DNA from: an uncultured virus (IMG/VR IMGVR_UViG_3300032069_000008)
Lineage: Duplodnaviria > Heunggongvirae > Uroviricota > Caudoviricetes
Virus record (IMG/VR): IMGVR_UViG_3300032069_000008
Strand: one strand, 5' to 3'
DNA length: 64,000 nt
The notes under the pieces: generated by a model
The model's input: the letters and a program-made list of their open reading frames with translations, nothing else
Told to the model about the DNA's origin: nothing
Database searches by the model: none
Part shown: in pieces, positions 7,989-46,466 of the stretch
Position numbering within the stretch: position 1 is the first letter of the stretch
Layout of the letters: each line of letters opens with the position of its first letter
Position numbers and translations under genes: made by a program

Positions 7989-7994
7989 ATAAAA

Positions 7995-8069
7995 CGCATG
8001 GGAACGGATTTGAACCATTATCTTTCCGATTAACAGTCGGAAGCATTAGCCAGGTTATGCTACCCATGC
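7995..8069 (-). tRNA. tRNA-Asn(GTT)
   Basis: Acceptor GCATGGG/CCCATGC, loop CTGTTAA, T-loop TTCAAAT, G73. Confidence 0.92.
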
Positions 8070-8070
8070 A

Positions 8071-8142
8071 TGTAGATGTAGGGATTTGAACCCTAACATA
8101 TGGCTCCACAGACCATAATGCTACCATTACATCACATCTACC
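8071..8142 (-). tRNA. tRNA-His(GTG), possible encoded G-1
   Basis: Acceptor GTAGATG/CATCTAC, loop CTGTGGA. Confidence 0.9.
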
Positions 8143-8145
8143 ATA

Positions 8146-8217
8146 TGCCCCTGAAGGGAGTCGAACCCTCATCTTTGGATTAGAAGTCCATGATACTATC
8201 CACTATACTACAAGGGC
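8146..8217 (-). tRNA. tRNA-Arg(TCT)
   Basis: Acceptor GCCCTTG/CAGGGGC, loop CTTCTAA. Confidence 0.88.
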
Positions 8218-8218
8218 A

Positions 8219-8292
8219 TGGGTCTGTCAAGATTTGAACTTGAGTATCCGAGTTCCAGGCTCGGGAGGATAACCAGACTACCTCACAGACCC
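8219..8292 (-). tRNA. tRNA-Pro(TGG)
   Basis: Acceptor GGGTCTG/CAGACCC, arm CCGAG-CCTGGAA-CTCGG (C33). Confidence 0.88.
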
Positions 8293-8295
8293 AAG

Positions 8296-8366
8296 TGGAA
8301 GTAATAGGAATTGGACCCATATCTCTGGTTTTGGAGACCAGCATGTTACCACTACACCATACCTCC
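8296..8366 (-). tRNA. tRNA-Trp(CCA), intronless
   Basis: Arm CTGGT-CTCCAAA-ACCAG; atypical T-loop TCCAATT. Confidence 0.82.
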
Positions 8367-8367
8367 A

Positions 8368-8442
8368 CGAGCGTGGTGAGATTTGAACTCACGACCTCTT
8401 AGTTCGAAGCCAAGCCATCTGTCCAAGCTGATATACACGCCC
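8368..8442 (-). tRNA. tRNA-Arg(TCG)
   Basis: Arm CTTGG-CTTCGAA-CTAAG. Confidence 0.9.
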
Positions 8443-8443
8443 A

Positions 8444-8516
8444 CGGACCCGATGGGACTTGAACCCACTTCTTCTCCTTCGCACGGAGAAAGACTATCCA
8501 GCTATCCTACGAGTCC
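8444..8516 (-). tRNA. tRNA-Arg(GCG)
   Basis: Arm TCTCC-GTGCGAA-GGAGA. Confidence 0.87.
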
Positions 8517-8520
8517 AAAA

Positions 8521-8592
8521 TCTGGATGAACGGACTCGAACCGATATTTATTCGGTCTACAGCCGAACGCATAACCTTTCTGCCACATCCAG
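8521..8592 (-). tRNA. tRNA-Tyr(GTA), archaeal type
   Basis: C1:G72, A73, short variable loop, loop CTGTAGA. Confidence 0.9.
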
Positions 8593-8594
8593 AG

Positions 8595-8692
8595 TGCGAG
8601 TGGGAGGATTTGAACCTCCGTTCTCAGCTTTATCAGAGCTGTGCGGTGCCAGATTATAAGTCTGGTGCGAAACCAAGCTACGCCACACTCGC
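8595..8692 (-). tRNA. tRNA-Ile with two tandem anticodon arms (TAT and GAT)
   Basis: 98 nt: GCGAGTG TG GCG-TAGCTTGGTTT-CGC A CCAGA-CTTATAA-TCTGG CACCGCA CAGCT-CTGATAA-AGCTG AGAAC GGAGG-TTCAAAT-CCTCC CACTCGC A. Confidence 0.85.
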
Positions 8693-8694
8693 AA

Positions 8695-8769
8695 CGAACC
8701 TGGGGAGATTTGAACTCCCGACAACCTGCTTAAAAGGCAGGCGTGTTGACCTAGCTACACTACAGGTTC
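8695..8769 (-). tRNA. tRNA-Lys(TTT)
   Basis: Arm CCTGC-CTTTTAA-GCAGG. Confidence 0.92.
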
Positions 8770-8772
8770 ATA

Positions 8773-8846
8773 CGGACCTAAAGGGATTCGAACCCTTGAC
8801 TTCTGGATTAAGAGTCCAGCACGCTACCTAGCTACGTTATAGGTCC
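8773..8846 (-). tRNA. tRNA-Lys(CTT)
   Basis: Arm CTGGA-CTCTTAA-TCCAG. Confidence 0.92.
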
Positions 8847-8848
8847 AG

Positions 8849-8922
8849 AGACTCTCCCCTGATTTGAACAGGGAATCACCTGATTTGCAGTCAAGGGCGT
8901 TGCCAGATTCCGCCAGAGAGTC
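8849..8922 (-). tRNA. tRNA-Cys(GCA)
   Basis: Loop CTGCAAA, U73 discriminator. Confidence 0.92.
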
Positions 8923-8923
8923 A

Positions 8924-8997
8924 TAGGCGTGGAATGATTTGAACATTCAACCGATGCGTTGTAAACGCATTGCACCACCAGATTGTGCTACACGCCT
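8924..8997 (-). tRNA. tRNA-Val(TAC)
   Basis: Arm ATGCG-TTTACAA-CGCAT. Confidence 0.9.
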
Positions 8998-8998
8998 A

Positions 8999-9072
8999 TG
9001 GACTTGGTAGGATTTGAACCTACAACGTCTGCCTCTTCAGGACAGCGAACTCCCAGATTGTTCTACAAGTCC
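8999..9072 (-). tRNA. tRNA-Phe(GAA)
   Basis: Arm CTGTC-CTGAAGA-GGCAG. Confidence 0.92.
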
Positions 9073-9075
9073 TTA

Positions 9076-9147
9076 TGTTCCCATCGGGACTCGAACCCAA
9101 GTTTCCAGGCCGAGAACCTAGCGTGATTGCCTCTACACCATGGGAAC
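9076..9147 (-). tRNA. tRNA-Glu(CTC)
   Basis: Acceptor GTTCCCA/TGGGAAC, loop TTCTCGG. Confidence 0.88.
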
Positions 9148-9164
9148 GAAGTAGAAGTTTCCCT

Positions 9165-9488
9165 CTACTCTTTTATTTGTTCTGCAAGACTTGTTGGCAG
9201 ATTCAACTTTTTCAGCAATCTTCCTGTTACAACTATTCTTGCTTGTGAATAATTGAAAGGTTCATCCGTCCAGCATTTTGCTTCATCTTCAGCAAATGAT
9301 TTTCCATCACTTGCCTCAGCTTTCGTATATCCGACCCAGATTGGTAATCCTGTGTAAGTGCTTCTAGGTCCTACATGATTTGGTCTGTGATGATATTCGA
9401 TTACCATCTTATGTCCACTGGTTTCTATCACTCGCTTCTCATCCTTATCTTGAAGGATGGCATCATATATTTTTTGTTTATTTTTCAT
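9165..9488 (-). CDS. 107-aa virus-type hypothetical protein embedded in the tRNA array
   Basis: ATG at 9488 preceded by GGTGA; fills the gap between the two tRNA-Glu genes; AKC..D.FN....R motif. Confidence 0.7.
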   Translation of the reverse strand: MKNKQKIYDAILQDKDEKRVIETSGHKMVIEYHHRPNHVGPRSTYTGLPIWVGYTKAEASDGKSFAEDEAKCWTDEPFNYSQARIVVTGRLLKKLNLPTSLAEQIKE

Positions 9489-9502
9489 GGCTCTTTCACC
9501 AG

Positions 9503-9577
9503 TGTTCCCAATGGGATTTGAACCCATGACTGTGGGTCGAAAGCCCACTATCTTTGTCCGACCTAGACTATGGGAAC
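9503..9577 (-). tRNA. tRNA-Glu(TTC)
   Basis: Arm GTGGG-CTTTCGA-CCCAC. Confidence 0.9.
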
Positions 9578-9580
9578 GGA

Positions 9581-9653
9581 CGGTCTCATCGGGATTTGAA
9601 CCCAAATCGTCTGATAGACAGTCAGATATGATACCTGATTACACCATGAGACC
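9581..9653 (-). tRNA. tRNA-Asp(GTC)
   Basis: Arm TCTGA-CTGTCTA-TCAGA, G73. Confidence 0.9.
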
Positions 9654-9655
9654 TA

Positions 9656-9729
9656 TGGAGTTAGAGGGATTTGAACCCTCAGTCAACGATTTGCAAAACC
9701 GTTATCTTCCCTGGTTAGACCATAACCCC
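9656..9729 (-). tRNA. tRNA-Ala(TGC)
   Basis: G3:U70 in GGGGTTA/TAACTCC; loop TTTGCAA. Confidence 0.88.
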
Positions 9730-9730
9730 A

Positions 9731-9806
9731 TTACGGTGGGAGGATTTGAACCTCCATACTTTAGCTTATGAGGCTAATGGACATCCAAGTTGTCCGTCAC
9801 ACCGTA
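9731..9806 (-). tRNA. tRNA with CAT anticodon (elongator Met or Ile2)
   Basis: Arm TTAGC-CTCATAA-GCTAA; 4-nt acceptor/D linker (2 nt longer than usual). Confidence 0.8.
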
Positions 9807-9877
9807 TAATCCCGCCCGGGTTCGAACCGAGGTTTGCGGGTTCAAAGCCCTGTCATTGACCACTAGACTACGGGATT
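9807..9877 (-). tRNA. tRNA-Gln(TTG)
   Basis: A1:U72 (archaeal Gln identity), loop CTTTGAA. Confidence 0.85.
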
Positions 9878-9883
9878 TTATGA

Positions 9884-9949
9884 TAGTTCCGAACGGATTC
9901 GAACCGTTGTCACCGCCTTCAGGGGGCAGTATCGTTGGAACACGGAATA
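9884..9949 (-). pseudogene. Degenerate tRNA-Gln(CTG)
   Basis: Intact anticodon arm (loop CCCTGAA) and T arm; truncated D arm and only a 5-bp acceptor stem. Confidence 0.65.
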
Positions 9950-9950
9950 T

Positions 9951-10055
9951 GTCCCGACAGGTTTCGCTGTGAGAGGAGCGTACGCCTTCCCACACGCTTT
10001 AGTTGTTCTTTTGATTAAAGAACTTATAACCAGGGTCATCAGCCTTGCTGTCGGA
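9951..10055 (-). ncRNA. Candidate structured RNA within the tRNA array
   Basis: Closing helix TCCGACAG/CTGTCGGG with two internal hairpins. Confidence 0.45.
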
Positions 10056-10126
10056 TGCACCCAACGGGAATCGAACCCGTATATTTGCGTTGGAAGCGCA
10101 ACTCCCTACCATTGGGATATGGATGC
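10056..10126 (-). tRNA. tRNA-Gly(TCC)
   Basis: Arm TTGCG-CTTCCAA-CGCAA. Confidence 0.9.
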
Positions 10127-10184
10127 AGGCAAAGCGTCCCACGTCAAGAATAATCTTCTTTTCTGTTATTCTTCCATTTTTATA

Positions 10185-10255
10185 TGCGGATGCCGGGAGT
10201 TGAACCCAGACTGTCTGATTGGCAACCAGAAGTCATGCCGTTAGACCACAACCGC
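10185..10255 (-). tRNA. tRNA-Gly(GCC)
   Basis: Arm TCTGG-TTGCCAA-TCAGA. Confidence 0.87.
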
Positions 10256-10263
10256 TTAAAAAA

Positions 10264-10337
10264 AGCCACCGACCGGAATCGAACCGATATTTCGTTCCCT
10301 TACAGGGGGAGTGCAAGCCAATTTTTGCTACGGTGGC
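10264..10337 (-). tRNA. tRNA-Thr(TGT)
   Basis: Acceptor GCCACCG/CGGTGGC, U73, loop CCTGTAA. Confidence 0.87.
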
Positions 10338-10527
10338 ACTAAAAAGGGGAACTAATATTCCGTCGGTGTCTCGACACTATCTATATGTCTACCCCAGGCT
10401 ATCCCACTAAAAATCGCATTACACTTCTGAGACATACGTTGTCGAGACATTCTAAATCACTTTATTCCATCTCCAAAGAGTCTACTCATTAGTAAATGGA
10501 AATCATTTAAAAAGAAATAAAAAAGGG

Positions 10528-10570
10528 AGTATATAAAATTATTGACAGACCAAAACTCTTATAAATAAAA
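10528..10570. promoter_or_regulatory. Divergent TATA boxes for the two tRNA transcripts
   Basis: TTTTATATA on the minus strand (about 10530-10538); CAAAACT-CTTATAAATA on the plus strand (about 10552-10567). Confidence 0.55.
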
Positions 10571-10600
10571 ACAATATTTGCTTTTTAATGAAAAACAAAA

Positions 10601-10665
10601 TCTTATCCAGTTTGCTAGAGTCGTTACGGCTCAGTCCCTTACGGGACTAATTACATTGGATAAGA
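10601..10665 (+). ncRNA. Candidate structured RNA (multi-way junction) ahead of tRNA-Leu
   Basis: TCTTATCCA/TGGATAAGA stem enclosing GAGTCG-TTA-CGGCTC and AGTCCC-TTAC-GGGACT. Confidence 0.45.
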
Positions 10666-10673
10666 CTATTTTT

Positions 10674-10820
10674 GCCGACGTAGCCAAGTCTGACGAAGGC
10701 GCTAGACAGAATTTTTGGGCGAAGCTTAAAAACTTTGGGCGATGCTCAAACAATCGCCAACTTGGAGAGACCTAGTCCCGTAGGGGTTAAAACCCGTAGG
10801 TTCAAATCCTGCCGTCGGCA
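10674..10820 (+). tRNA. Intron-containing tRNA-Leu with alternative anticodon exons (TAA or CAA)
   Basis: Acceptor GCCGACG/CGTCGGC plus A73; archaeal Leu variable arm TCCCGTAGGGGTT. Exons 10674-10705, then 10724-10730 or 10744-10750, then 10770-10820, with BHB motifs at 30/31 and 37/38. Confidence 0.8.
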
Positions 10821-10824
10821 CTAG

Positions 10825-10910
10825 GCAGGAATGGCCGAGTGGTTAAAGGCGATAGGTTGCTAACCTATTGGTTGAAATATACCACGTAAGTTCAAATCTT
10901 ACTTCCTGCG
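10825..10910 (+). tRNA. tRNA-Ser(GCT)
   Basis: Arm ATAGG-TTGCTAA-CCTAT, long variable arm, G73. Confidence 0.92.
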
Positions 10911-10913
10911 TAG

Positions 10914-10995
10914 GGTGAGATGACAGAATCAGGGATTGTACCCCGCTTGAGACGGGTGCTTACTGGTGACAGTATTGAAGGTTCAAATCTCACCG
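10914..10995 (+). pseudogene. Degenerate tRNA-Ser(TGA)
   Basis: Acceptor GGTGAGA/TCTCACC, loop CTTGAGA and long variable arm present; 3' strand of the T stem missing. Confidence 0.7.
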
Positions 10996-20588: not shown

Positions 20589-23500
20589 ATGATTAGTTCT
20601 AATATGCAAAAGTTGGTAGTCTTTATTTGTCTGTTAGTTCTTTTCAGCTATCTACCAATTCATGTTCATGCAGACCCACTTGTGAATGTCGTAACAAACC
20701 TCCGCACAAGTTTGACTTATTCATCAATACAAGATGCAATCGATGATGCAAGTGCTGGAGACACTCTTTCTGTTGGTGCTGGTACATATAATGAGAATGT
20801 TGTTGTCGATATAGAAGTCAATATCTATGGAGTATCAGCTTCAACTGTTACAGTGGACGGAGGCGGTTCTGGTATTGTTTTTGAAATAACTGCTGATTAT
20901 GTAAATCTTAGCAAATTAACAATTACAAATAATGGCGGGGATGGCGTATATCTAAACAATGCAGACCATGGAGTAATAACACGAAATATATTTTTACATA
21001 ACAATGGTACAAATGCAGGTATATTTTTTGACCATTCCTCTTACTGGCAAATCTATGAAAACGATTTTGAGGACAGTTCCATCTGCCTTTATAATGATGA
21101 TGACAGCGATTACAATCTTGCATACCATAATAATTTTTTAAACTGTTCTGCGATAGACGATGTACCGACTCCACCATCTACAAATCTATGGAACTTGACG
21201 TATCCCAATGGTGGGAACTATTGGTATGACCATTTCGATTTCACCGATGACTTTTCAGGTCCCAACCAAGACATCCTGGGAAGTGATGGCATTGTTGATA
21301 CACCGTATTCCTGCGGTCGTTCAGGGGTGGATTATTATCCCTCAATGACACCTATTGATTATACGAGTTTGCCACCGATATTATCAGACCCATCTCCAGT
21401 AAGCGGGACAACAGACATCAGCTTAACACAATCAATGGTAAGCGTTAGAATAGAAGATGCAAGCAATACGTTTGATTATACGATAGAGGGAACATATATT
21501 ACTGCAAAAAGTGAAACAGGGGCCCATAATGGCATTAAAACAACAAGCATAGTTTCAACTCTCCCATATTACACAACTGTAGTTTGGTATGTAAATGCGA
21601 CAAACGGCTTGAAATCCGTAAGTGCTGTTTATTCATTCATAACAATAAAATTTACTGCACCTGTAAATAATTATGTAGCCCCATCTTACGGTCCGTCTGA
21701 CCCGCAATGGAGAAAAACGCGTTGGAACGACGTACAAGATGCCATAGATACAATACAAACGGGAGGCACAATTCATATCTCGGCTGGAACATACGATGTC
21801 GGCATCGATAAGTTGGACAACCTCTGGATAAATCGCTCTATGACACTTCAAGGGGAAAACCGTGATACGACAATAATACACGGTGAATCAATGCATGGTG
21901 GTGTTGTTGATTTTACAATAGAGATTTCGGATGTAAAATATCCTTGGGGTCCAATATCAAATACTGTTAATGTTTTTATCAAAGATTTAACAATAGAAAA
22001 TGAGTATATTTCTGCCCAAAGCGCCTGTATGCAATTCCGTCAAACTCAAAACTGCAAAATAGATAATTGTAGGGTTAGTGGCGGATTTTACGGTATAGTC
22101 TTAGAACCTGATGCATATTATACCACCATCAGTTCTTGTCTTGTAGAGGATATGGAGAACACTGGAATATTAGGTATCGGAAGTTATACTACCATTGAAT
22201 ATAGCGAAATAATGAATAACCAAGAAGGACTTGCCCTCGCAGGTACTATCTATGAAGGCAACATGTGGATTATAGGCAATAATATACATGACAATAGTCA
22301 TAACGGTGTAGATATAGATTTTGCAAATAATGTAACTGTCATTGAGAATACAATCGAAGACAATGGCGATATAGGTGGTTCAGGATGTTATGTCTTCCAT
22401 TCAAGAAATGTTTCTATTTATCATAATAATTTCATAAGTAATCGTGTCCAAGCTGATGATGATGGGCTCAATACAAACCTAAAATGGAATGACACTTATC
22501 CATCTGGCGGAAATTACTGGGATGATTTTGATGAGCCATCTGAAGGTGCATATGACAACTATAAAGGTTCAGCTCAGAGCATTCCCGGTATCGATGGCAT
22601 AGTTGATGAGAACTCAATGAACCCATATACTATCCCAGGTGGTGGGAATGACTGGTATCCATTGATATATCCCTATTCAGGTGGACACTGTATGGGTGCT
22701 GATTTCTATTGGACACCATATTATCCATCAGTCAACGATACAGTAACTTTTTCTGAAGATGTATGCTCAATGAATGTTATTTCATGGAAATGGAATTTTG
22801 GCGATGGTACGACTAAAACGGCAACAGGTTCTACAACACATATCTATAAAAAAGCAGGGTATTATGATGTCACATTGACTATCGAAGATAAATGGGGAGC
22901 AAAAGACCACTCAACCAAACGCATTTATGTCGGCAATATGCCACACATTCCACCAATACAGCCACCAAAATATCCAGGTTATACCGTTCCGGAGATGTAT
23001 CAATTATTAAGGGCAGATAAACTAGATGTGACAACCAATACCGTCAAGATAATGGTTTTGGACACTGGCGTAACACAAAGAGAATACAATGGTATAAATC
23101 TCAAAAAAATCACGGTAGAATACAATCATGCCTATCCAAGCGGTACAGACGAAAACGGTCATGGTACGTGGTGCGCATATGCTGTTGCATATCTCCTTCA
23201 GACAAAAGCCCCGAATGCAAAGCAGATTTCATACAGAATGCTTGACAAGGCGGGTGGTTGTACCACGCAAATCTTTTTAGATGCACTTGACCAGGCGATG
23301 AAAGAAGGCGTAGATGTAGTTTCGATAAGTGCGGGCACAGATTTCGGTAAACCAGGCGACCCGTTGACAAAAAAATGTGATGAATTAAAACGTGCAGGCA
23401 TTATTATCATAGTAGCAGCGGGCAACAAGGGACCGGTATCATCATCGGTTGCGTCGCCCGGCGTATCCGATTCAGTGATAACGATTGGTGCTGAAGACCC

Positions 23501-24020
23501 GCAATGGTATGTTCAAGACAAACTTGCAGGAATTTTAAATTTGAAAGATGATACAATTGCGTATTGGAGCAGTCGTGGTCCAGTAGGTGGCATGAACTAT
23601 TACAAACCAGACGTAGTAGCACCAGGGGAGAGCATCTGGGGACCATGGCTCTCTGAGGAAAGAAAAGTGAGTGGAACAAGCATGGCAACCCCTCTTGTGG
23701 CTGCCGGAGTGGCACTCATAGTTGCGGAGAACCGAGGATTGATAGACCAGGCAAAACAAGCACTATTCTGGGACAAATCAGCAATATCTAATGCAATGGA
23801 AGAGGCACTGAAAGAGAGTTGCTATCCAAAAGGTGACAAGAATACGTGGGGAGCCGGCATCGTACAGTTTGATAAAGTTAACATACTATTCAAACAAAAG
23901 TTAAGCGGAATGATATTTACAGGATGTGCGAGTATTATCATATTGTTAGTGATACTAATAATAGTTATCTTACTATATATTTACAAAAAGAAAAAAACTA
24001 AAAAGTGGTGGGCAAAATAA
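20589..24020 (+). CDS. Membrane-anchored S8 subtilisin-like protease with two NosD/pectin-lyase-like beta-helix domains and a PKD domain
   Basis: Signal peptide; IQDAID and YHNNF...GGNYW repeats; WNFGDG (PKD); catalytic DTG, HGT, GTSMA; C-terminal TM with basic tail. Confidence 0.88.
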   Translation: MISSNMQKLVVFICLLVLFSYLPIHVHADPLVNVVTNLRTSLTYSSIQDAIDDASAGDTLSVGAGTYNENVVVDIEVNIYGVSASTVTVDGGGSGIVFEITADYVNLSKLTITNNGGDGVYLNNADHGVITRNIFLHNNGTNAGIFFDHSSYWQIYENDFEDSSICLYNDDDSDYNLAYHNNFLNCSAIDDVPTPPSTNLWNLTYPNGGNYWYDHFDFTDDFSGPNQDILGSDGIVDTPYSCGRSGVDYYPSMTPIDYTSLPPILSDPSPVSGTTDISLTQSMVSVRIEDASNTFDYTIEGTYITAKSETGAHNGIKTTSIVSTLPYYTTVVWYVNATNGLKSVSAVYSFITIKFTAPVNNYVAPSYGPSDPQWRKTRWNDVQDAIDTIQTGGTIHISAGTYDVGIDKLDNLWINRSMTLQGENRDTTIIHGESMHGGVVDFTIEISDVKYPWGPISNTVNVFIKDLTIENEYISAQSACMQFRQTQNCKIDNCRVSGGFYGIVLEPDAYYTTISSCLVEDMENTGILGIGSYTTIEYSEIMNNQEGLALAGTIYEGNMWIIGNNIHDNSHNGVDIDFANNVTVIENTIEDNGDIGGSGCYVFHSRNVSIYHNNFISNRVQADDDGLNTNLKWNDTYPSGGNYWDDFDEPSEGAYDNYKGSAQSIPGIDGIVDENSMNPYTIPGGGNDWYPLIYPYSGGHCMGADFYWTPYYPSVNDTVTFSEDVCSMNVISWKWNFGDGTTKTATGSTTHIYKKAGYYDVTLTIEDKWGAKDHSTKRIYVGNMPHIPPIQPPKYPGYTVPEMYQLLRADKLDVTTNTVKIMVLDTGVTQREYNGINLKKITVEYNHAYPSGTDENGHGTWCAYAVAYLLQTKAPNAKQISYRMLDKAGGCTTQIFLDALDQAMKEGVDVVSISAGTDFGKPGDPLTKKCDELKRAGIIIIVAAGNKGPVSSSVASPGVSDSVITIGAEDPQWYVQDKLAGILNLKDDTIAYWSSRGPVGGMNYYKPDVVAPGESIWGPWLSEERKVSGTSMATPLVAAGVALIVAENRGLIDQAKQALFWDKSAISNAMEEALKESCYPKGDKNTWGAGIVQFDKVNILFKQKLSGMIFTGCASIIILLVILIIVILLYIYKKKKTKKWWAK

Positions 24021-24123: not shown

Positions 24124-24840
24124 ATGAGCTTTTGTGAAGAGCAAAAGAGAAACTTCGCACGGCTCAAATGCAACGTGTGGATAGTTCCAGAACCATATAA
24201 GACACCAGCAACAGATTATCCTCTCGAAAAGGTCGGTTCGGCAGAGTTGAAACGGTCATATGACCATCAAAACGTCTACGTCATGGAAGGGGTAAACAAC
24301 AGTGATTTTTGTTGCGTTGAAAACAAGATACCAATCACCTCTCTTAAAATTAATAAAACGACCTGGATGGTCGATATACCTTCTCATTGGGAAGGAATGA
24401 AAAGACTTGCAGAAAAAAGCAGAGGAAACGTTCTCGTCGGCGGTCTTGGTCTTGGATTGGTTTTACATGCCTTACGAAAGAATCCCAAAGTCAAAAAGAT
24501 AGATGTTTATGAACGTAATAAAGACGTAATAAAACTGATGAAGGACAAGATACCAAAAGACATCACAATCCATAATGAAAATGTATTTTCTTTTGCAGAT
24601 GAACGAATGTGGAAAAAAATAAAAGGGGAGGAAGTCACTGATTGCCCAGATACAATAATACTGGATACGTGGGTCGGTAAACCAGATAAAAAAATGTTTT
24701 ACGAAATGGTTGCAGCACATGGGAGTTTTTTGTTTGCTTGTCCTAATTCAAAAGTCTATATTTGGGGAACTAGAGACCCAGAATTGAACCCAGCTATTGA
24801 GAAAGAACCATGTGAAGTATTAAAGGAGATGAGAGTTTGA
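24124..24840 (+). CDS. Class I SAM-dependent methyltransferase-like protein
   Basis: VLVGGLGLG motif I, VYE acidic motif, IILD.W. Confidence 0.75.
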   Translation: MSFCEEQKRNFARLKCNVWIVPEPYKTPATDYPLEKVGSAELKRSYDHQNVYVMEGVNNSDFCCVENKIPITSLKINKTTWMVDIPSHWEGMKRLAEKSRGNVLVGGLGLGLVLHALRKNPKVKKIDVYERNKDVIKLMKDKIPKDITIHNENVFSFADERMWKKIKGEEVTDCPDTIILDTWVGKPDKKMFYEMVAAHGSFLFACPNSKVYIWGTRDPELNPAIEKEPCEVLKEMRV

Positions 24841-26219
24841 AAAAAGAAACTAAAAAAATATTAGCAATAACGTTAGTCCTTTTGCTGCTTCTCATAAGTT
24901 CGTTCTATGTATTATTTTTAAAGCCAGAACCTATGCAGACTACAGTAGATACACAAGGTGCTTGGTGGATAACACAAGCTTGGTTAGGATGGCGAAACCA
25001 GGATAATGTATATCAAAAATACGCCACGTTTTATGATGGTGAATCAATACAAGGCTGTGATTATACGCTTACATATAAACAGAGTGAAGGTTATGGGAAT
25101 CCTACGAAATGGAAGGTGACTGTAGAGATACAAGATAAAAACCATAATCGGGTTAAAGGAACTACTGTAACAGGCGGTGCATTGGCTGTTGGACAGACGG
25201 TTACTGCTGTGTGCGATTTCAGTCCTATAGAGTTATCATCAACTAATCGCCTTCATGGTGACGTCTGGATAGAAATATACAATACTAATGTGGGTTGGGA
25301 GGGTGGTCAATGTGTATCGAATCTTCCAATTAATGTTCAACCAAATTTACCTAGTTTTACATTAGATTATTATCAGGTGTCTGCAACAACTGCTAAGGCG
25401 GGTGACACTCTTACTGTTTCATATCAGTATACAAATACTGGCAGGGCATCCGGAACATTATACGTTGCCTTGTGGGCTGATAAATGGAAAAGAGGAGAAA
25501 ACTATGGGGACATGGAACTTTATACTAAAAAATCAGAGCAAATAGCGGTCGGCGGTACCCTTTCTGATACTATGTCGGTTCAAATTTTAGATAATTATGC
25601 GTCAGATGATAATATTATAAGATTGGGTCTGAACAATGAAATAAAGCAAATAACATACACACCGCCGATATACTCACTGACCATCGTGACTGTACCAGCA
25701 CAATGCCTTGTAACTACCTCTGGTAAATCAGTCAATTCAGGCACGGCTGGTGCGGTATTCAGCCTGGGAAAGGGAACATATAGTGTTACTGTCACAAAGG
25801 ATAAATATTCCCCGAAAACAGAGACAGTTGCACTTGACCAATCAAAAACAGTAATAGTAACACTATCACAAATAATATACGATTTAGAGATTAATACAAC
25901 GCCACTCAGCACGGTTGAAGTTAAAAATGTGGATACGAAATACGCAGATGAAAATGGAACTGTGACCTTCAAATTAATACCAAACACATATGCTATTGTA
26001 ATCTCAAAATCAGGATATACTGCAAAGTCACTATCAATAACTGTTGATAAAAACATGATTTATACACAAGCATTGGAAAAAAGCACAGTACCAACGCCAC
26101 CACCATCTACACCACCACCTACAACACCACCCACCAAAAAGACACCGGGATTTGAAACCGCGATATCGCTAATCGCCTTAGCACTTGTTGTTATTGCATG
26201 GAGGAAACGCCGTGAGTGA
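24837..26219 (+). CDS. Cell-surface protein with PEGA-like repeats and PGF-CTERM
   Basis: N-terminal TM, Pro/Thr linker, TPGFE plus TM plus RKRR. Confidence 0.85.
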   Translation: MKKETKKILAITLVLLLLLISSFYVLFLKPEPMQTTVDTQGAWWITQAWLGWRNQDNVYQKYATFYDGESIQGCDYTLTYKQSEGYGNPTKWKVTVEIQDKNHNRVKGTTVTGGALAVGQTVTAVCDFSPIELSSTNRLHGDVWIEIYNTNVGWEGGQCVSNLPINVQPNLPSFTLDYYQVSATTAKAGDTLTVSYQYTNTGRASGTLYVALWADKWKRGENYGDMELYTKKSEQIAVGGTLSDTMSVQILDNYASDDNIIRLGLNNEIKQITYTPPIYSLTIVTVPAQCLVTTSGKSVNSGTAGAVFSLGKGTYSVTVTKDKYSPKTETVALDQSKTVIVTLSQIIYDLEINTTPLSTVEVKNVDTKYADENGTVTFKLIPNTYAIVISKSGYTAKSLSITVDKNMIYTQALEKSTVPTPPPSTPPPTTPPTKKTPGFETAISLIALALVVIAWRKRRE

Positions 26220-30964: not shown

Positions 30965-31969
30965 GTGATGACGATGAAACAAACAGTCTGCAATTACTGT
31001 AAAAAAAAAATTAAGCGTTTTCCTTGTAAAATACGTAAAATTAATTTTTGTAACAAAAAATGTTTATCTAGTTGGTATAAATTAAAAAGAAAGTCAATTA
31101 CTTGTAACAATTGCGGTAAAAAGATTGATATTATTCACGCAAAAATAAAAAATCACAACTATTGTTCAAATGCTTGTTATCATTTATCACGAAGAAATAA
31201 TCGAATAATCAATAAAATTCCAACAAAAGGAGAATTAATCGAACAATATGTAAAACAAAATAGAACATTAAAAGAAATAGGAAAATGCTACGGTTTGGCA
31301 AGGGAAACTACATATTTTTATATCAAAAAATATAATATTAGTTACGAAAAAAAATGGTCTCTTACAAAAATAAATAAAAGACAAACATTTTTCTTAGGGT
31401 ATGTAGTCGGTGCTATTTTTGGTGATGGATGGTTTTATAAAAAGGCATATAGAACATATTTTTGTTCTACAGAGTTATCTTCAATATCAGTATTTATGAG
31501 TATGCTGTCAGAGATATATCCAGGTTGTTTCAGGATACGAACTCAAGAAAGACCAAATGTAAAAATATTATATACCATAGAAATTCCATGCAAAGCATTA
31601 TATGAGTTTCTTTCACCATATAAAGAAAAATCACGATTTTTTATACCAGATTTTTTAAATACAAAGGAAAGCAAAGCAGGATTTTTATCGGGCTTTTTTG
31701 ATGCTGAAGGCTGCATACAAATTTATAACAATAGATTAGCATCATTATATATCAGTTCTAAATATTATGAAAATCTTATTCCAATTCAAAAAATGTTAAC
31801 CGAATTTGGAATAGAATCTAAATTGAATAGAGTAAAAACACGCATGGAAAGCAGAATATATTTAGGACAAAACTACGAAAATCTAAAAAAAATTAAGAAA
31901 AATATAAACTTTCATTCTTTCAAAAAAATGAAAACACTGGAGGATGCAATATGCTTAAAACAACAATAG
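30965..31969 (+). CDS. Free-standing LAGLIDADG homing endonuclease with N-terminal Zn-finger repeats and HTH
   Basis: YVVGAIFGDG and FLSGFFDAEG motifs; CxxC..FC...C repeats. Confidence 0.88.
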   Translation: MMTMKQTVCNYCKKKIKRFPCKIRKINFCNKKCLSSWYKLKRKSITCNNCGKKIDIIHAKIKNHNYCSNACYHLSRRNNRIINKIPTKGELIEQYVKQNRTLKEIGKCYGLARETTYFYIKKYNISYEKKWSLTKINKRQTFFLGYVVGAIFGDGWFYKKAYRTYFCSTELSSISVFMSMLSEIYPGCFRIRTQERPNVKILYTIEIPCKALYEFLSPYKEKSRFFIPDFLNTKESKAGFLSGFFDAEGCIQIYNNRLASLYISSKYYENLIPIQKMLTEFGIESKLNRVKTRMESRIYLGQNYENLKKIKKNINFHSFKKMKTLEDAICLKQQ

Positions 31970-33403: not shown

Positions 33404-33664
33404 ATGGTAACTGACCCAATAACTGACCTATTTAGTGGAACTGGCACAGAACAGGAAAAAAAGAAAGCTGAAGCATATTGGTCTGCAAGCCTGAATGTAA
33501 AATGTCCATATTGCGGGCACATTGTCGATATCCTTGATACAGATGAATGGAGCAATGACTGGGCATATAAATTCGGCAGATTGGAAACCAGAGCAAAGAT
33601 AGATGCAGAAGTGCAGTGCCCAAAATGCAAATTAATCTTTGATGTGGAGACTGTGATATGGTAG
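33404..33664 (+). CDS. Zn-ribbon protein
   Basis: CPYC...CPKC. Confidence 0.6.
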   Translation: MVTDPITDLFSGTGTEQEKKKAEAYWSASLNVKCPYCGHIVDILDTDEWSNDWAYKFGRLETRAKIDAEVQCPKCKLIFDVETVIW

Positions 33665-34986
33665 AGACAATATGCGATAACTGTGGAAAAAAAATTGAAC
33701 GAAATAAATACGAAATAGAAACATGTGAGCGTCATTTTTGCAACAGAAAATGCTATGGGAAATGGCGTTCCCAAAATAGAATTTGTGCCAACCATCCTAA
33801 TTGGATAGATGTACCAAAAAACGAAATAATTGATTTGTATAAATCAGGTTGCACAATTACTAAGATTAGCAAAATGCATCATATATCACAAGGAACCATA
33901 TACAGTAGATTTAAAAAATGGGACATACTCTTAATTAATAAAAATGCTGAGATAAAATGCGACAATTGTGGAGAAAAAACCAAAAGAAGAAATTGTTTAA
34001 TAAAAGCATGGAAGCACCATTTTTGTAACAAGAAATGCTATGATGAATGGAGGATGTACCCAATAAAATTAGAACCAACTTATTCCCTTGGCTATTTAAT
34101 TGGTGTTATTTTTGGAGACGGACATATAAATTTATCTCAAAATAGGATAATTATAACAACTGCGGATATAGACTGGATTGGAACGCTTATAACGATAATT
34201 AATGAAATTTGTCCCCAAATATCAACAGTCGGCATCCAATCATATGAATATTGGGGCAAAGCCGTCCAAGTGGGTATTTACTCTAAAAAATTATGTAAAG
34301 TTCTCAAACCCTTTAAACTAGAACCACACAGATATAATATCCCGCCCTTTCTAAATACGCCAGAATCATTAGCAGGTTTAGTAGCAGGCTTGATAGATAC
34401 AGATGGATGCATACAAATCCATAGACAAAATATTAATATTGAACTGACTTCAAAATATGTTGAAAATCTAATTCCAATTGAAAAAATATTAAAAAATATT
34501 TTTGAGATAAACTCAAAAATTTACTCTCCCCCGTCTCGTGAATCTTCGGTTTTAAGGATTGCCGGCTATGCAAATTTGTTTAGATTTGAACAGAAGATAG
34601 GGCTAATAATGACAAGGAGACAAAATCTACTGCAACAAGCAATTACCGAAGCAGAAAAAAAATATAAACGAAGAGAGTACAGTAAGCAAAGAATAGAAGA
34701 AATGGTACATCTTTATAAAAATAAAAATCTTTCTTTGAGACAAATAGCAAATAAATTAGATGTAAGTAAAGACTATGTTTGTATAGTTGCAAGAAGAAAC
34801 AACCTTTCAAGAAGAACAATACATACGCCAGAGCAATATAATGACGTAATTAATTTACGAAAAATGGGGCATACTATCGAAGAGATATCATTTCTCACAA
34901 GTATTAGTATTCATGCTATCCGAGAATGGATTTATAGAAACAGAAAACCGCTATCAGTGCACATGCTGGAGGCTGAAAATGGTTGA
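33658..34986 (+). CDS. Free-standing LAGLIDADG homing endonuclease with Zn fingers and HTH domains
   Basis: YLIGVIFGDG and LVAGLIDTDG motifs; similar to 30965-31969. Confidence 0.9.
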   Translation: MVETICDNCGKKIERNKYEIETCERHFCNRKCYGKWRSQNRICANHPNWIDVPKNEIIDLYKSGCTITKISKMHHISQGTIYSRFKKWDILLINKNAEIKCDNCGEKTKRRNCLIKAWKHHFCNKKCYDEWRMYPIKLEPTYSLGYLIGVIFGDGHINLSQNRIIITTADIDWIGTLITIINEICPQISTVGIQSYEYWGKAVQVGIYSKKLCKVLKPFKLEPHRYNIPPFLNTPESLAGLVAGLIDTDGCIQIHRQNINIELTSKYVENLIPIEKILKNIFEINSKIYSPPSRESSVLRIAGYANLFRFEQKIGLIMTRRQNLLQQAITEAEKKYKRREYSKQRIEEMVHLYKNKNLSLRQIANKLDVSKDYVCIVARRNNLSRRTIHTPEQYNDVINLRKMGHTIEEISFLTSISIHAIREWIYRNRKPLSVHMLEAENG

Positions 34987-41038: not shown

Positions 41039-41111
41039 AGCGTGGTAGTGTAGCGGACAACACGTTTGCCTCATGAGCAAATAATCATTGGTTCAAATCC
41101 AATCCACGCTA
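41039..41111 (+). tRNA. tRNA-Met(CAT), isolated
   Basis: Acceptor AGCGTGG/CCACGCT (A1:U72), arm TTTGC-CTCATGA-GCAAA, T-loop TTCAAAT. Confidence 0.9.
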
Positions 41112-45163: not shown

Positions 45164-45245
45164 ATGGATAATGGATGGATAGCAATATTTATATAATCCA
45201 CTGCATATATATTTTGTGTTGAAAACAAATAGAGTAAAAATAAAT

Positions 45246-46466
45246 ATGCAAATAACAACAAAACGTGTTGAACGGATATGGTTGAAACCATCCGATGAAC
45301 TGAATCGGATGTGCCACATTGCAAAAAACCTATACAATGAAGCAACATATCTGATACGCCAGGAATTATTCAACACGGGCCGGCGGATTAGATACAATGA
45401 ACTAGCCAAAGTGTTGAAGGATTCAGAGAACTATAAGATTCTTCCTGCAAAGACGGGCCAACAAATTCTTAAATATGTTGATTGGAACTGGAAAAGTTTT
45501 TTCAATGCCATGAAACAGTACAAAAAAATTCCCAGTGCTTTCTTTGGGCGTCCTGGCATTCCGAAATACAAACATAAAGATGGAGTATTCATGCTGATTT
45601 TCACTAATCAGCAAGTGAGCATCAAAAACAACGTACTAATATTCCCTAAAAAGATGGATGAAGTTCTGCCAAAGGTCAGAGTGAGACCTATTATAGAAAA
45701 ACTGAGGGAAGTACGTCTTATTCCACGTGCAGTTGGCTATATTCTTGAGATTGTTTACGATAAAATAATTAATGCACCGAAGCGAGACAAACGTATTGTG
45801 GCTGGTATCGATTTGGGTGTTCGCAACCTTGCAACTATCGTAGATAACACAGGTGGTAAGCCTATTGTTATCAAAGGCGGGACTGTGAAGTCAATCATCC
45901 AATTCTACCAGAAAGAAAGGGCACGACTGCAAAGCATCTATGATTTGCAGAAGCAAGACAAACAAGGCATGAAGATGAAACGATTGTCGGACAAGTATAA
46001 AAAGAAGATGCACGATTATCTGCACAAGGTTAGCAACGCCATTATAAAGCATCTGGACAGACGTGGTATCGGTCTCTTGGTCATCGGGTACAATGATGAC
46101 TGGCAACACAAAGCAACTCTTGGTAGACGAAATAATCAAACATTCTCATCAATACCGTATAGACAGCTCATCAACATGCTTCAATATAAAGCAGAGGAAC
46201 AGGGAATTAATACTATGATGCCAGACGAGAGCCATACTTCTGTGTGTTCATTTTTCGATAACGAAACGATAGAACATCATGATGAGTATGTTGGAAAACG
46301 GAAAGGCGGATTGTTCAGAACAGCAAAAGGGCATGTTGTGAATGCAGACGTGAACGGTGGATTTGACATCATGAAGAAAGCAGTCCCAAATGCCTTCCAG
46401 AAATGGATGGCGGACGGGATAGAGGGTGCCGTGGGTCATCCATTGAGATTGAAGGTCGTGCGATGA
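45246..46466 (+). mobile_element. tnpB: Stand-alone TnpB (IS200/IS605 family, IS1341-like) RNA-guided nuclease
   Basis: AKNLYN helix, RuvC-I GIDLG, ESHTS, RuvC-III NADVNG; no adjacent tnpA. Confidence 0.9.

Follow-up and report, generated by a model that had tools for sequence, protein, structure and literature searches.

Composite Leu and Ile genes with several candidate anticodons in a dense, archaeal-type tRNA array of an uncultured virus

Results

A compact two-strand array of tRNA genes

The window analyzed here, a 64,000-nucleotide stretch of DNA from an uncultured virus (IMG/VR IMGVR_UViG_3300032069_000008), contains 27 tRNA-like genes between positions 7995 and 10995, 24 on the minus strand and 3 on the plus strand. 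This total from ARAGORN and Rfam matches the tally of an earlier sequence-only reading, whose observation of the array was confirmed. ARAGORN called 23 tRNAs within 7994 to 10910. Rfam in gathering mode returned 24 tRNA matches in the same interval, the extra one being a 98-nt Ile gene (8595 to 8692), and its permissive mode added three further genes: Leu and two copies, one Gln(CUG)-like and one Ser(UGA)-like. With the Rfam tRNA cut-off of 29 bits, 25 of the 27 genes scored at or above the threshold. To judge from their sequences, the Gln(CUG)-like and Ser(UGA)-like copies are probably degenerate or defective. The same array, together with both composite genes described below, was found in two related IMG/VR contigs (G001 and G002), in line with the survey of related elements that had been suggested; each has 23 Rfam tRNA matches in the gene order of the window.

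All genes of the minus-strand row were called by both ARAGORN and Rfam unless stated otherwise. Its first gene, tRNA-Thr(UGU) (10264 to 10337; C33), followed by a run of seven Ts, was found by Rfam and by ARAGORN in mt mode. The Gly(ccc) call made for it by ARAGORN in default mode was rejected: mt mode gave Thr, and the G002 homologue, with the same loop, was called Thr. Because this gene is taken as Thr(UGU), coverage of all 20 amino acids, as previously proposed, is complete. It is succeeded by tRNA-Gly(GCC) (10185 to 10255), tRNA-Gly(UCC) (10056 to 10126), and a structured spacer of ∼100 nt (9950 to 10052) with an 8-bp closing helix and without match to any RNA family. The Gln(CUG)-like copy (66 nt, 9884 to 9949; 27.1 bits in Rfam permissive mode, below the cut-off) has a nearly missing D arm, two acceptor mismatches, and C33, and no counterpart in G001 or G002. 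Then tRNA-Gln(UUG) (9807 to 9877; A1:U72) directly adjoins tRNA-Met(CAU) (9731 to 9806; Rfam, 38.1 bits), an abutment seen in the earlier reading as well. After tRNA-Ala(UGC) (9656 to 9729), tRNA-Asp(GUC) (9581 to 9653), and tRNA-Glu(UUC) (9503 to 9577), the row is interrupted by a minus-strand open reading frame of 107 amino acids (9165 to 9488), located between the two Glu genes and preceded by a Shine-Dalgarno-like site (GGTGA). It matched no known family; its homologues are located within the G002 array and, for the C-terminal part, within that of G001. The row continues with tRNA-Glu(CUC) (9076 to 9147), tRNA-Phe(GAA) (8999 to 9072), tRNA-Val(UAC) (8924 to 8997), tRNA-Cys(GCA) (8849 to 8922), tRNA-Lys(CUU) (8773 to 8846), tRNA-Lys(UUU) (8695 to 8769), and the composite Ile gene (59.1 bits in Rfam). 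Downstream are tRNA-Tyr(GUA) (8521 to 8592), which has a short variable loop (class I) and C1:G72 of the archaeal/eukaryal type, tRNA-Arg(GCG) (8444 to 8516), tRNA-Arg(UCG) (8368 to 8442), tRNA-Trp(CCA) (8296 to 8366), tRNA-Pro(UGG) (8219 to 8292; C33), tRNA-Arg(UCU) (8146 to 8217), tRNA-His(GUG) (8071 to 8141; G at position -1, 8142), and, as the last gene, tRNA-Asn(GUU) (7995 to 8069), after which a T-rich tract follows.

The two rows are separated by an AT-rich divergent intergenic region (10338 to 10673) with TATA-like motifs and structured leaders on both sides. The minus-strand motif TTTATATA lies at 10530 to 10537, and the plus-strand motif TATAAATA, a candidate promoter element, at ∼10560 (about 10560 to 10567). 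TTTAWATA occurs 18 times in the window versus 16.1 expected, that is, without enrichment, and the TATA-like motifs are thus only putative promoters. The plus strand carries the Leu gene (10674 to 10820), the class II tRNA-Ser(GCU) (10825 to 10910; ARAGORN and Rfam), and the Ser(UGA)-like gene (10914 to 10995; 20.6 bits in Rfam permissive mode, below the cut-off), which lacks ∼6 nt corresponding to the T-stem 3' strand of the relatives' copies. This separate Leu-Ser-Ser unit, already recognized from the sequence, is the same in the relatives, behind its own AT-rich spacer.

The tight packing described earlier was borne out, spacers being mostly 0 to 3 nt: 18 of 23 minus-strand junctions do not exceed 3 nt (the remaining five measure 6, 8, 57, 103, and 354 nt), and both plus-strand junctions are 3 nt. 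As had also been noted, CCA is not encoded after any of the 27 genes. The proposed neighborhood of isoacceptors held for Lys, Arg (UCG/GCG), Gly, and Ser; Gln(UUG) stands beside the degenerate CUG-like copy, and the Glu pair is split by the small open reading frame.

With respect to codon use, AUA accounts for 49% of the element's Ile codons, GCA, CCA, and ACA make up 46 to 53% of their own families, and GC3 is 0.35. Array anticodons mostly have U34, including Ile(UAU), and U34 decoders alone serve five four-codon families. The dominance of A-ending codons in the element's own codon use, together with the mostly U34 array, supports the earlier idea that the array suits this usage. CUN codons constitute 55% of Leu codons, and the array of the window has no CUN decoder.

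A Leu gene with tandem anticodon cassettes

The Leu gene scored 35.3 bits in Rfam permissive mode, above the 29-bit cut-off, and was aligned with a 4-bp anticodon stem enclosing a 66-nt insert. It consists of a single 5' exon (tRNA positions 1 to 30) and a single 3' exon (from position 38), with tandem 7-nt anticodon-loop cassettes between them. The 5' exon (10674 to 10705, plus strand, as are all parts of this gene) comprises the acceptor strand, D arm, and anticodon-stem positions 27 to 30, with the 5' bulge of a bulge-helix-bulge (BHB) splice motif at its end. It is followed by intron 1 (short form, 18 nt, 10706 to 10723; class hBHBh'), cassette 1 (positions 31 to 37, anticodon UAA; 10724 to 10730), the second copy of the 3' splice-site element of a tandem 20-nt repeat (10731 to 10743), cassette 2 (positions 31 to 37, anticodon CAA; 10744 to 10750), and intron 2 at position 37/38 (short form, 19 nt, 10751 to 10769; relaxed, with 3 of 4 pairs in the BHB central helix). 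The 3' exon (10770 to 10820) contributes position 38, the anticodon-stem 3' strand, a long variable region, the T arm, and the acceptor strand. Both window cassettes sit in the 20-nt repeat, whose copies differ at 3 positions. G001 and G002 each have four cassettes in identical order (UAG, AAG, UAA, and CAA), so that all 10 cassettes of the three genes carry a Leu anticodon and none is repeated within a gene.

No single deletion of the window Leu gene yielded tRNA-Leu(UAA) or tRNA-Leu(CAA). Removal of two introns in silico gave products called Leu(taa) and Leu(caa), and for the three genes together, 10 of 10 products were called tRNA-Leu with the expected anticodon. Upstream junctions were canonical BHB motifs in 9 of 9 cases (8 hBHBh' and 1 hBH); as background, hBHBh' occurred in 4 of 5,559 deletion windows of the Leu gene and in 1 of 1,890 of the Ile gene. 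Since tandem-duplicated cassettes inherit their copy by descent, the upstream splice element is not independent proof of use. The 10 downstream junctions comprised 3 canonical motifs, 6 relaxed motifs, and 1 without a motif; both window junctions at 37/38 had 3 of 4 central pairs, and one in G002 had 2 of 4. Base 31, the first of the cassette, changes together with position 39, the pair being G:C in the window and in G002 and A:U in G001. Positions 28:42 also covary across the three genes, as does position 33 with the 3' element.

An Ile gene with two anticodon arms

In the Ile gene, a single acceptor/D/T body is combined with two complete anticodon arms, one for UAU and the other for GAU. Arm 1 (8649 to 8665, minus strand; anticodon UAU) and arm 2 (8625 to 8641, minus strand; anticodon GAU) both have a 5-bp stem and a 7-nt loop. 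The linker between them (8642 to 8648, minus strand) starts with CAC and ends with A, enclosing CGC, which repeats the D-stem 3' strand. Each arm is thereby preceded by its own D-stem 3' strand copy plus A26, and a standard tRNA of 74 nt would result from the body with just one of the two 24-nt modules. The two-arm gene is present in all three elements, with the order swapped (GAU first) in G001; in G002, it is adjoined by a separate ordinary tRNA-Ile(GAU). Thus, the two-in-one make-up that had been proposed for the Ile and Leu genes is real and kept in relatives.

In the Ile alignment, 74 of 75 pair cells were paired, with changes on both sides at 3 of 5 pairs in arm 1 and 5 of 5 in arm 2. 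D-stem position 12 pairs with both 3' strand copies, and in either pairing both partners change; pair 12:48, involving the second copy, is GC in two sequences and CG in one. A canonical BHB for excision of either 24-nt module was found in none of the three genes.

Identity of the element

The tRNA set is of archaeal type, as judged from the class I tRNA-Tyr with C1:G72, an Orc1/Cdc6 gene and a PGF-CTERM motif in the window, and introns at 37/38 in the Cys (79 nt) and Gly(UCC) (97 nt) genes of G002, both strict hBHBh'. Alongside the same array, G002, the relative whose protein genes were scanned, encodes head and packaging proteins of the tailed-virus kind, namely a large terminase (E value of 2e-23) and portal, head, and tail-fibre proteins. 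No Pfam family was found for 26 of the 43 window open reading frames, no ribosomal or other housekeeping genes were found in the 64 kb, and DNA similarity to phage and plasmid collections was limited to one 67-nt match. Three composite genes of each kind are known, two of them from one sample; both sequencing runs with DNA of the element are DNA runs, represented by contigs.

Discussion

We consider it reasonably probable that the locus is a viral or virus-like archaeal tRNA array whose composite Leu and Ile genes each supply several anticodons. The row of genes would be transcribed and cut by host RNase P and tRNase Z at the 0- to 3-nt spacers, with CCA added by the host; such cutting and CCA addition are general steps of tRNA maturation. 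The array may furnish the element's own decoders for its favored A-ending codons. Based on gene anatomy, conservation, covariation, and splice motifs, we infer alternative splicing of the Leu gene: the sequence before each cassette would pair with the 5' exon end and create a BHB splice site, and after each cassette, at the usual 37/38 position, a second BHB would form with one shared element before the 3' exon. Host splicing endonuclease and RNA ligase would then link a single cassette to the 5' exon on one side and to the 3' exon on the other, the cassette retained depending on which copy pairs. One gene could thus give tRNA-Leu(UAA) and tRNA-Leu(CAA), and in the relatives also the UAG and AAG forms. 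Both Ile arms may likewise be used, either by excision of one module through an unspecified route or by a D stem that alternates partner strands. We know of no precedent for a tRNA that switches its D-stem register.

It is rather unlikely that each composite gene makes just one tRNA and that the surplus parts are remnants of duplication. The window Leu gene would then be tRNA-Leu(CAA) interrupted by two ordinary introns, and the G001 gene tRNA-Leu(UAG) with one long intron, extra cassettes being recent tandem duplications within introns and the second Ile arm an inert variable-region insertion. This would suit the 20-nt repeat around the window cassettes, by which the splice element is carried along in duplication, the minimum-energy fold of the Leu gene, in which cassette 1 is buried in a long hairpin, the first G001 cassette, which is joined directly to the 5' exon and followed by an 82-nt, strict hBHBh' intron at 37/38, and the Rfam alignment, which treats the Ile gene as tRNA(UAU) carrying an insert in the variable region. 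However, every one of the 10 cassettes has a Leu anticodon, all distinct per gene, and the cassette order is shared by G001 and G002 at only 74 to 79% identity nearby. The covariation of base 31 with base 39, the compensatory changes in both Ile arms, the second D-stem copy that tracks the D-stem change, and the arms swapped in G001 speak against it as well.

For the Ile gene only, a recognition function of the second arm seems somewhat less likely still: tRNA-Ile(UAU) would read AUA, only one arm would ever decode, and the GAU arm would be a long variable arm resembling the major tRNA-Ile in its anticodon loop, thereby making the UAU tRNA acceptable to isoleucyl-tRNA synthetase or a modification enzyme. 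In an IMG/VR scan, many phage tRNA(UAU) genes had an extra variable-arm hairpin; the matches listed (at least 117 loci) included 82 distinct sequences whose anticodon stem is paired, and 58 of these had GAT in the hairpin loop, which was mostly the 7-nt CAGATTA. A literature search found no paper on such genes with a GAU-tipped extra arm. The separate tRNA-Ile(GAU) of G002 also fits this function. In G001, however, it is the GAU arm that sits where the anticodon normally is, with the UAU arm in the variable position, and a recognition arm would not need the covarying second copy of the D-stem 3' strand and the A26 that precede it, which are missing from the phage class. Moreover, the unpaired linkers of the Ile gene measure 7 and 5 nt, and those of class II tRNAs are typically shorter. 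That the array is simply the host's only tRNA set, as the sequence-only reading had considered, is unlikely, because in G002 it adjoins terminase, portal, and head genes and because so many window open reading frames lack a Pfam family. A stretch of cellular chromosome with the host's own clustered tRNA set would account for the Orc1/Cdc6 and cell-surface protein genes in the window; against the same viral neighbors, unassigned frames, and lack of housekeeping genes, and with no CUN Leu decoders and U34-only decoding in five families, we regard it as highly improbable.

For the design of one gene with several anticodons, no match was found in the literature searched. The tri-split tRNA-Gly of Caldivirga maquilingensis (Fujishima et al. 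2009; PMC4390854) similarly combines a common 5' part and 3' half with alternative short anticodon-loop pieces to make synonymous isoacceptors, BHB-joined by the archaeal splicing machinery; for the Leu gene, joining is predicted. There, the pieces come from separate transcripts and loci of a cellular genome and are joined in trans, whereas here, two to four alternative pieces are tandem in cis within one gene of 148 to 167 nt on viral contigs. Thermoproteales and Asgard tRNA genes can have several or non-canonical BHB introns, with 30/31 as a listed non-canonical site (PMC4090602; 10.64898/2026.10.13.758758). The Leu gene resembles them in its introns at 30/31 and 37/38 and its motif classes (hBHBh', hBH, and relaxed). 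As far as these accounts go, those genes give one product, whereas the Leu gene has repeated copies of the micro-exon that lies between the two introns, each with another anticodon.

As a dense cluster of at least 20 tRNA genes in a mobile or viral genome, the array has parallels in bacterial "tRNA array units" (PMC4758250), a haloarchaeal virus with many tRNA genes (PMC13532342), and Borgs with 5 to 23 tRNAs (PMC11208441). As far as these systems are described there, the window array differs from them in its archaeal type, 0- to 3-nt spacers, about 9 genes per kb, and composite genes. The Ile gene shares with the phage tRNA(UAU) genes a UAU anticodon and a further hairpin with a 7-nt loop and central GAU; in the phage genes among the matches listed, the arm is 4 bp long, the linkers are short, and a second D-stem strand is missing, and many of these genes encode CCA. 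Relative to these and to allo-tRNA(UAU), as far as the latter is covered in the available text (PMC5389517 and PMC7609411), the Ile gene is distinguished by a 7/5 acceptor/T architecture (not 8/4 or 9/3), two complete 5-bp arms, and an arm order that is swapped in one relative.

Gene content and layout of the tRNA array

Between positions 7994 and 10910, ARAGORN recognized 23 tRNA genes, whereas the Rfam covariance model RF00005 in gathering mode (cut-off, 29 bits) recognized 24, the extra one being a 98-nt gene at 8595 to 8692. Permissive Rfam filters added three further tRNA-like genes: a Leu gene of about 147 nt (10674 to 10820, plus strand; 35.3 bits, which exceeds the cut-off), a Gln(CUG)-like copy of 66 nt (9884 to 9949, minus strand; 27.1 bits), and a Ser(UGA)-like gene (10914 to 10995, plus strand; 20.6 bits). 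The total of 27 genes, 24 on the minus strand and 3 on the plus strand, exactly reproduced the count of the sequence-only reading. Its concern that most of them might score as pseudogenes was not borne out: 25 of the 27 reached the Rfam cut-off, the Gln(CUG)-like and Ser(UGA)-like copies being the two below it. The array was also as compact as had been described, with spacers of at most 3 nt at 18 of 23 minus-strand junctions (the others measuring 6, 8, 57, 103, and 354 nt) and of 3 nt at both plus-strand junctions, and, as stated there, CCA was not encoded after any of the 27 genes. With 27 tRNA-like genes in 3.0 kb, it falls within the definition of a tRNA array unit (at least 20 tRNA genes at a minimum of 2 per kb) in the accessible part of PMC4758250.

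The gene at 10264 to 10337 was called Gly(ccc) by ARAGORN with default settings and Thr(UGU) in its mt mode; the homologue in G002, one of two related contigs described below, has an identical loop and was called Thr. Read as Thr(UGU), it brings coverage to 20 of 20 amino acids, completing the decoding set that had been proposed.

An AT-rich region separates the diverging rows and contains TTTATATA at 10530 to 10537 (minus strand) and TATAAATA near 10560 (plus strand). Since TTTAWATA was no commoner in the window than expected by chance (18 observed versus 16.1 expected), these divergent TATA-like motifs are no more than candidate promoters. Directly behind the first gene of the minus row, Thr, a run of seven T's (10256 to 10263, minus strand) resembles an archaeal terminator, and a TATA-like ATATAAAAA follows Gly(GCC) at ∼10184; the row may comprise more than one transcription unit. 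Structured leaders precede the first tRNA of either row (10338 to 10520, minus strand; 10600 to 10673, plus strand). C33 replaces the near-universal U33 in the genes at 8219 to 8292, 10264 to 10337, and 9884 to 9949.

Two viral contigs share the array

When IMG/VR was scanned for the two Leu loops with a T loop downstream, 2 of the 6 loci obtained were true relatives: G001 (17,038 nt; coordinates prefixed L262) and G002 (20,937 nt; L263), both from one sample. Each had 23 Rfam tRNA matches. Gene order was common to all three elements, running Thr, Gly, Gly, Gln, ..., Lys, Lys, Ile, Tyr, followed by Arg, Arg, Trp, Pro, Arg, His, Asn, and, beyond the AT-rich gap, Leu, Ser(GCU), and Ser(UGA). The arrays of G001 and G002 lie entirely on one strand; in the window, the Leu-Ser-Ser unit is inverted. 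Upstream of the array, the two relatives were 74 to 79% identical. In G002, genes for a large terminase (E value, 2e-23) and for portal, major head, head-decoration, and tail-fibre proteins adjoin the array, identifying this contig as a tailed virus.

In G002, an intron of 79 nt interrupts Cys(GCA) (L263 12125) and one of 97 nt Gly(UCC) (L263 11284), each at position 37/38 and with the strict hBHBh' form of the bulge-helix-bulge (BHB) splice motif. The arrays would therefore rely on archaeal tRNA splicing. Both introns are canonical and unusually long, and their window homologues are intronless. The leader of the window Leu gene shares an ATCCAG...GAG element with those of the relatives (L262 14488 to 14957; L263 13953 to 14063), and C33 recurs in Gly(UCC) of G001 and in Thr, Asn, and two Leu cassettes of G002.

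The two copies below the Rfam cut-off are probably defective. The Ser(UGA)-like gene, as read against its counterparts in the relatives (48.0 and 57.6 bits), lacks ∼6 nt forming the 3' strand of the T stem. In the Gln(CUG)-like copy the D arm is nearly absent, and neither G001 nor G002 has a counterpart of it. Next to it, the ∼100-nt spacer that follows Gly(UCC) (9950 to 10052, minus strand) forms a folded domain with an 8-bp closing helix and a UGAUGA box; it had no Rfam match and no counterpart in either relative. No single BHB intron was found that would restore either gene or explain the spacer.

The Leu gene contains tandem anticodon cassettes

In its Rfam alignment, the Leu gene showed an acceptor, a D arm, a 4-bp anticodon stem, a variable region, and a T arm, with positions 31 to 39 replaced by 66 nt. 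Within this insert lies a 20-nt tandem repeat. Its copies are distinguished by 3 positions, among them the wobble base, which makes the anticodon UAA in one copy and CAA in the second. We refer to the 7-nt anticodon-loop piece of each copy (tRNA positions 31 to 37), which lies between a shared 5' exon and a shared 3' exon, as a cassette. No single deletion was found that yields tRNA-Leu(UAA) or tRNA-Leu(CAA) from this gene.

Exon-intron borders were tested for a BHB, taken as a 4-bp central helix, two 3-nt bulges, plus flanking helices no shorter than 2 bp, according to the definition in the accessible parts of PMC4090602 and of a preprint (10.64898/2026.10.13.758758). The end of the 5' exon at 10705 formed an hBHBh' motif with the sequence preceding either window cassette, which would place an intron at position 30/31. 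The predicted 3' cut at either cassette is followed by a G and then the loop, and this G pairs with the C with which the anticodon stem's 3' strand begins. At the canonical position 37/38, another intron is predicted that would extend from each cassette to 10769; these junctions had 3 of 4 central-helix pairs with h = 6 and belong to the relaxed class, the whole anticodon stem forming the outer helix. When both introns were removed in silico, the products were called tRNA-Leu(taa) and tRNA-Leu(caa), each of 91 nt. As background, hBHBh' motifs were rare, occurring in 4 of 5,559 deletion windows of the Leu gene and in 1 of 1,890 of the Ile gene.

In G001 and G002, the Leu gene has four cassettes each, whose order (UAG, AAG, UAA, and CAA) is identical. 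All 10 cassettes of the three genes carry a Leu anticodon, and all 10 in silico products were called tRNA-Leu with the expected anticodon. Upstream junctions were canonical BHBs in 9 of 9 cases (8 hBHBh' and 1 hBH), the tenth cassette being contiguous with the 5' exon. Among the 10 junctions downstream of a cassette, 3 were canonical, 6 were relaxed, and 1 had no motif; 3 of the 4 in G001 were canonical, and G002 had 3 relaxed and 1 without. In the window and G002, every cassette opens with a G that matches a C at position 39 of the same gene; in G001, the match is A with U. Positions 28 and 42 covary, as do position 33 and the shared 3' element. At the level of sequence comparison, the relatives thus settle that the cassette design is not a freak, and the two-in-one Leu gene proposed for the window, with its UAA and CAA cassettes, has four-cassette counterparts.

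The presence of a splice motif is by itself no argument for use, because a tandem duplication of the cassette takes its splice element with it. The argument for use lies instead in the retention, across diverged genomes, of copies that have four different anticodons, all of them for Leu. One viral gene appears to encode two to four isoacceptors through a choice among tandem 7-nt cassettes at archaeal splice motifs. The stretch itself was present as contigs in two sediment DNA runs, one of them perhaps its source and the other with identical fragments, and there was no RNA run among the sequencing-run matches. No array variants were seen in the contigs of these two runs; since contigs drop rare variants, cassettes might nevertheless switch at the DNA level.

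Both relatives have an AAG cassette (L262 15022 to 15028; L263 14130 to 14136). To our knowledge, archaeal tRNA genes with an encoded A34 are very rare, and this cassette would need deamination or else would read CUU alone.

The Ile gene carries two anticodon arms

The second composite gene, the 98-nt Ile gene at 8595 to 8692, has two complete anticodon arms on one tRNA body. A single acceptor stem, D arm, and T arm accompany two 17-nt arms with UAU and GAU loops. In the linker between them, CAC is followed by the D-stem 3' strand in a second copy and then by an A, so that each arm is preceded by a D-stem 3' strand plus A26, and deletion of either 24-nt module (one arm with its strand copy) would give a standard 74-nt tRNA. 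This gene, too, had been described as a two-in-one design, and a survey of related elements for fused genes had been suggested; in this comparison, G001 and G002 proved to have the array together with composite Leu and Ile genes. The layout in G002 equals that of the window, and in G001 the arms are reversed, with GAU first. In an alignment of the three sequences, 74 of 75 pair cells were paired, and both partners had changed in 3 of 5 pairs of arm 1 and in 5 of 5 of arm 2. D-stem position 12 pairs with either 3'-strand copy and shows a both-side change in each (GC in two sequences, CG in one).

A canonical BHB was absent from the borders of either 24-nt module in all three genes, and the sole hBHBh' motif in the window gene would remove 28 nt, including the D-stem 3' strand. 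Without a BHB for the 24-nt excision, two mechanisms come into consideration. One module might be excised by an unknown route; alternatively, the D stem might swap its partner strand, so that either arm would enter the anticodon position. In its furthest-reaching form, the latter would make the gene product a never-spliced, two-headed tRNA whose D-stem 5' strand pairs with either of the identical 3' strands, the idle arm projecting from the variable region or from the D loop, and one RNA would read AUA and AUY. We consider this unlikely, yet if true, the two-headed Ile gene and the mutually exclusive micro-exons of the Leu gene would mean that viruses compress their tRNA sets by placing several anticodons on one body.

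A different possibility is that the GAU arm serves as a recognition handle. When IMG/VR was scanned for a UAU loop followed by a long variable region, at least 117 loci were obtained (L135 to L251), which revealed that phage tRNA(UAU) genes having one more hairpin, with GAU in its 7-nt loop, form a large class. Among the matches listed, the anticodon stem was paired in 82 distinct sequences, and 58 of these had GAT in the extra-hairpin loop, mostly as CAGATTA. We found no publication on this class in the literature searched; its GAU hairpin may be an anticodon-loop mimic. The Ile genes of the window and G002 resemble these genes in having a UAU arm followed by a GAU-loop hairpin. However, the phage class lacks the duplicated D-stem strand, which makes membership of the Ile gene doubtful, and the reversed arm order in G001 argues against a mere handle. 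The Ile gene also differs from allo-tRNAs, which the accessible part of Mukai et al. (PMC5389517) defines by an 8/4 or 9/3 acceptor/T-stem structure: its acceptor has 7 bp and its T stem 5 bp.

Searches for further composite genes

A generic two-arm Ile pattern matched 5 loci in IMG/VR and a tandem-cassette pattern 26, and in either case only G001 and G002 were real, the other 24 tandem-cassette loci being coding repeats. An earlier two-arm scan of viral sequences gave 11 chance matches and used a pattern too strict for G001 or G002. The at least 120 stretches from a metagenome scan were nearly all ordinary tRNA-Ile(GAU) genes with an acceptor end resembling the UAU loop, and the single match in a genome-contig collection was due to chance. 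ARAGORN passed over both composite genes (Ile and Leu) and took Thr for Gly. As standard finders miss or mis-call genes such as these, similar ones may be hidden elsewhere.

Relation to known tRNA systems

In the literature that we know and searched, one tRNA gene corresponds to one anticodon. Neither tandem alternative anticodon cassettes within one tRNA gene nor the combination of two anticodon arms with a duplicated D-stem strand in such a gene was found there. The evidence for composite genes comes from the sequences, motifs, and covariation of three genomes. If confirmed, this design would be the first instance of programmed alternative cis-splicing of a tRNA, a new route by which small genomes compress their decoding set, and a model from nature for engineering tRNA genes with multiple anticodons. 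It would also touch on the old notion of tRNAs as assemblies of exchangeable parts and would offer a defined substrate for how splicing endonucleases choose among competing BHB sites.

Judging by the accessible parts of the sources, viral or extrachromosomal tRNA arrays (PMC4758250, PMC13532342, and PMC11208441) and multiple or noncanonical BHB introns (PMC4090602 and 10.64898/2026.10.13.758758) are well known. The nearest published system, again as far as the accessible part of PMC4390854 goes, is the tri-split tRNA-Gly of Caldivirga, in which a shared 5' quarter and 3' half are joined in trans with alternative anticodon-loop transcripts. The Leu gene likewise has common end pieces and alternative anticodon-loop pieces. 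In contrast to the tri-split tRNA with its separate loci, all pieces lie inside one gene.

Codon use, genome type, and other features of the elements

Codon usage was determined from 15,273 codons of the window ORFs (GC3, 0.35). AUA accounted for 49% of Ile codons, AGA for 41% of Arg codons, and GCA, CCA, and ACA for 46 to 53% of their families. The array provides U34 anticodons for Ala, Pro, Thr, Val, Ser, Gly, Arg, Leu, Lys, Glu, and Gln, and UAU for Ile, and this set agrees with the preference for A-ending codons, as anticipated by the suggestion that the array suits the element's codon use. The window array has no decoder of CUN Leu codons, though these make up 55% of Leu codons; UAG and AAG Leu cassettes are present in G001 and G002.

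The tRNA set is of archaeal type. The tRNA-Tyr at 8521 to 8592 is a 72-nt class I tRNA with C1 and G72, an archaeal-type feature; the BHB introns of the relatives also count toward this assignment. An Orc1/Cdc6 initiator (E value, 1e-41) had its nearest Atlas clusters in Bathyarchaeota and Asgard phyla, and proteins with PGF-CTERM tails were present, with weak Heimdall-CTERM-like matches below the cut-off. A Borg or Methanoperedens-plasmid origin was also considered; tandem repeats were few, and the nearest Orc1 clusters were those just named. DNA similarity to phage and plasmid collections was absent except for one 67-nt tRNA match, and flanking proteins gave only weak partial matches to potential relatives. 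The window has a GC content of ∼0.37 and almost all genes on one strand, and 26 of its 43 ORFs had no Pfam family.

Secreted or surface proteins encoded on this virus-like element are numerous, with S8 protease, NosD beta-helix, PKD, PEGA, fn3, and dockerin domains (20589 to 24020, 24837 to 26219, 51146 to 53659, 56458 to 57885, and 60673 to 62409). Two ORFs with LAGLIDADG domains and an IS605-type TnpB gene were found at 30965 to 31969, 33658 to 34986, and 45216 to 46466. A solitary tRNA-Met(CAU) with A1:U72 (41039 to 41111, plus strand; 68 bits) lies 30 kb off the array, directly upstream of a DUF5131 gene, and may be an initiator or an integration site.

Within the array, all three elements contain a small ORF of 81 to 113 aa at differing places: in the 354-nt gap of the window (107 aa; 9165 to 9488, minus strand), at L263 10843 to 11184, and at L262 12796 to 13041. 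Its product is the only protein common to the 64-kb window and the relatives, with 50% identity to the G002 copy (E value, 7e-32) and a weaker, C-terminal match to that of G001, and the same GGTGA-containing sequence lies upstream in all three. It had no Pfam, PHROG, or NCBIfam family and no PDB sequence match; in the Atlas it fell only into unnamed viral clusters, at 0.92, and just 5 clusters, including the window's own, were found in a set of 5.8 billion proteins. This protein may act on tRNAs. Just downstream of the G002 array, a 481-aa protein combines a ParB-HTH part with a DpdA/TGT-like domain (L263 14755 to 16200, minus strand).
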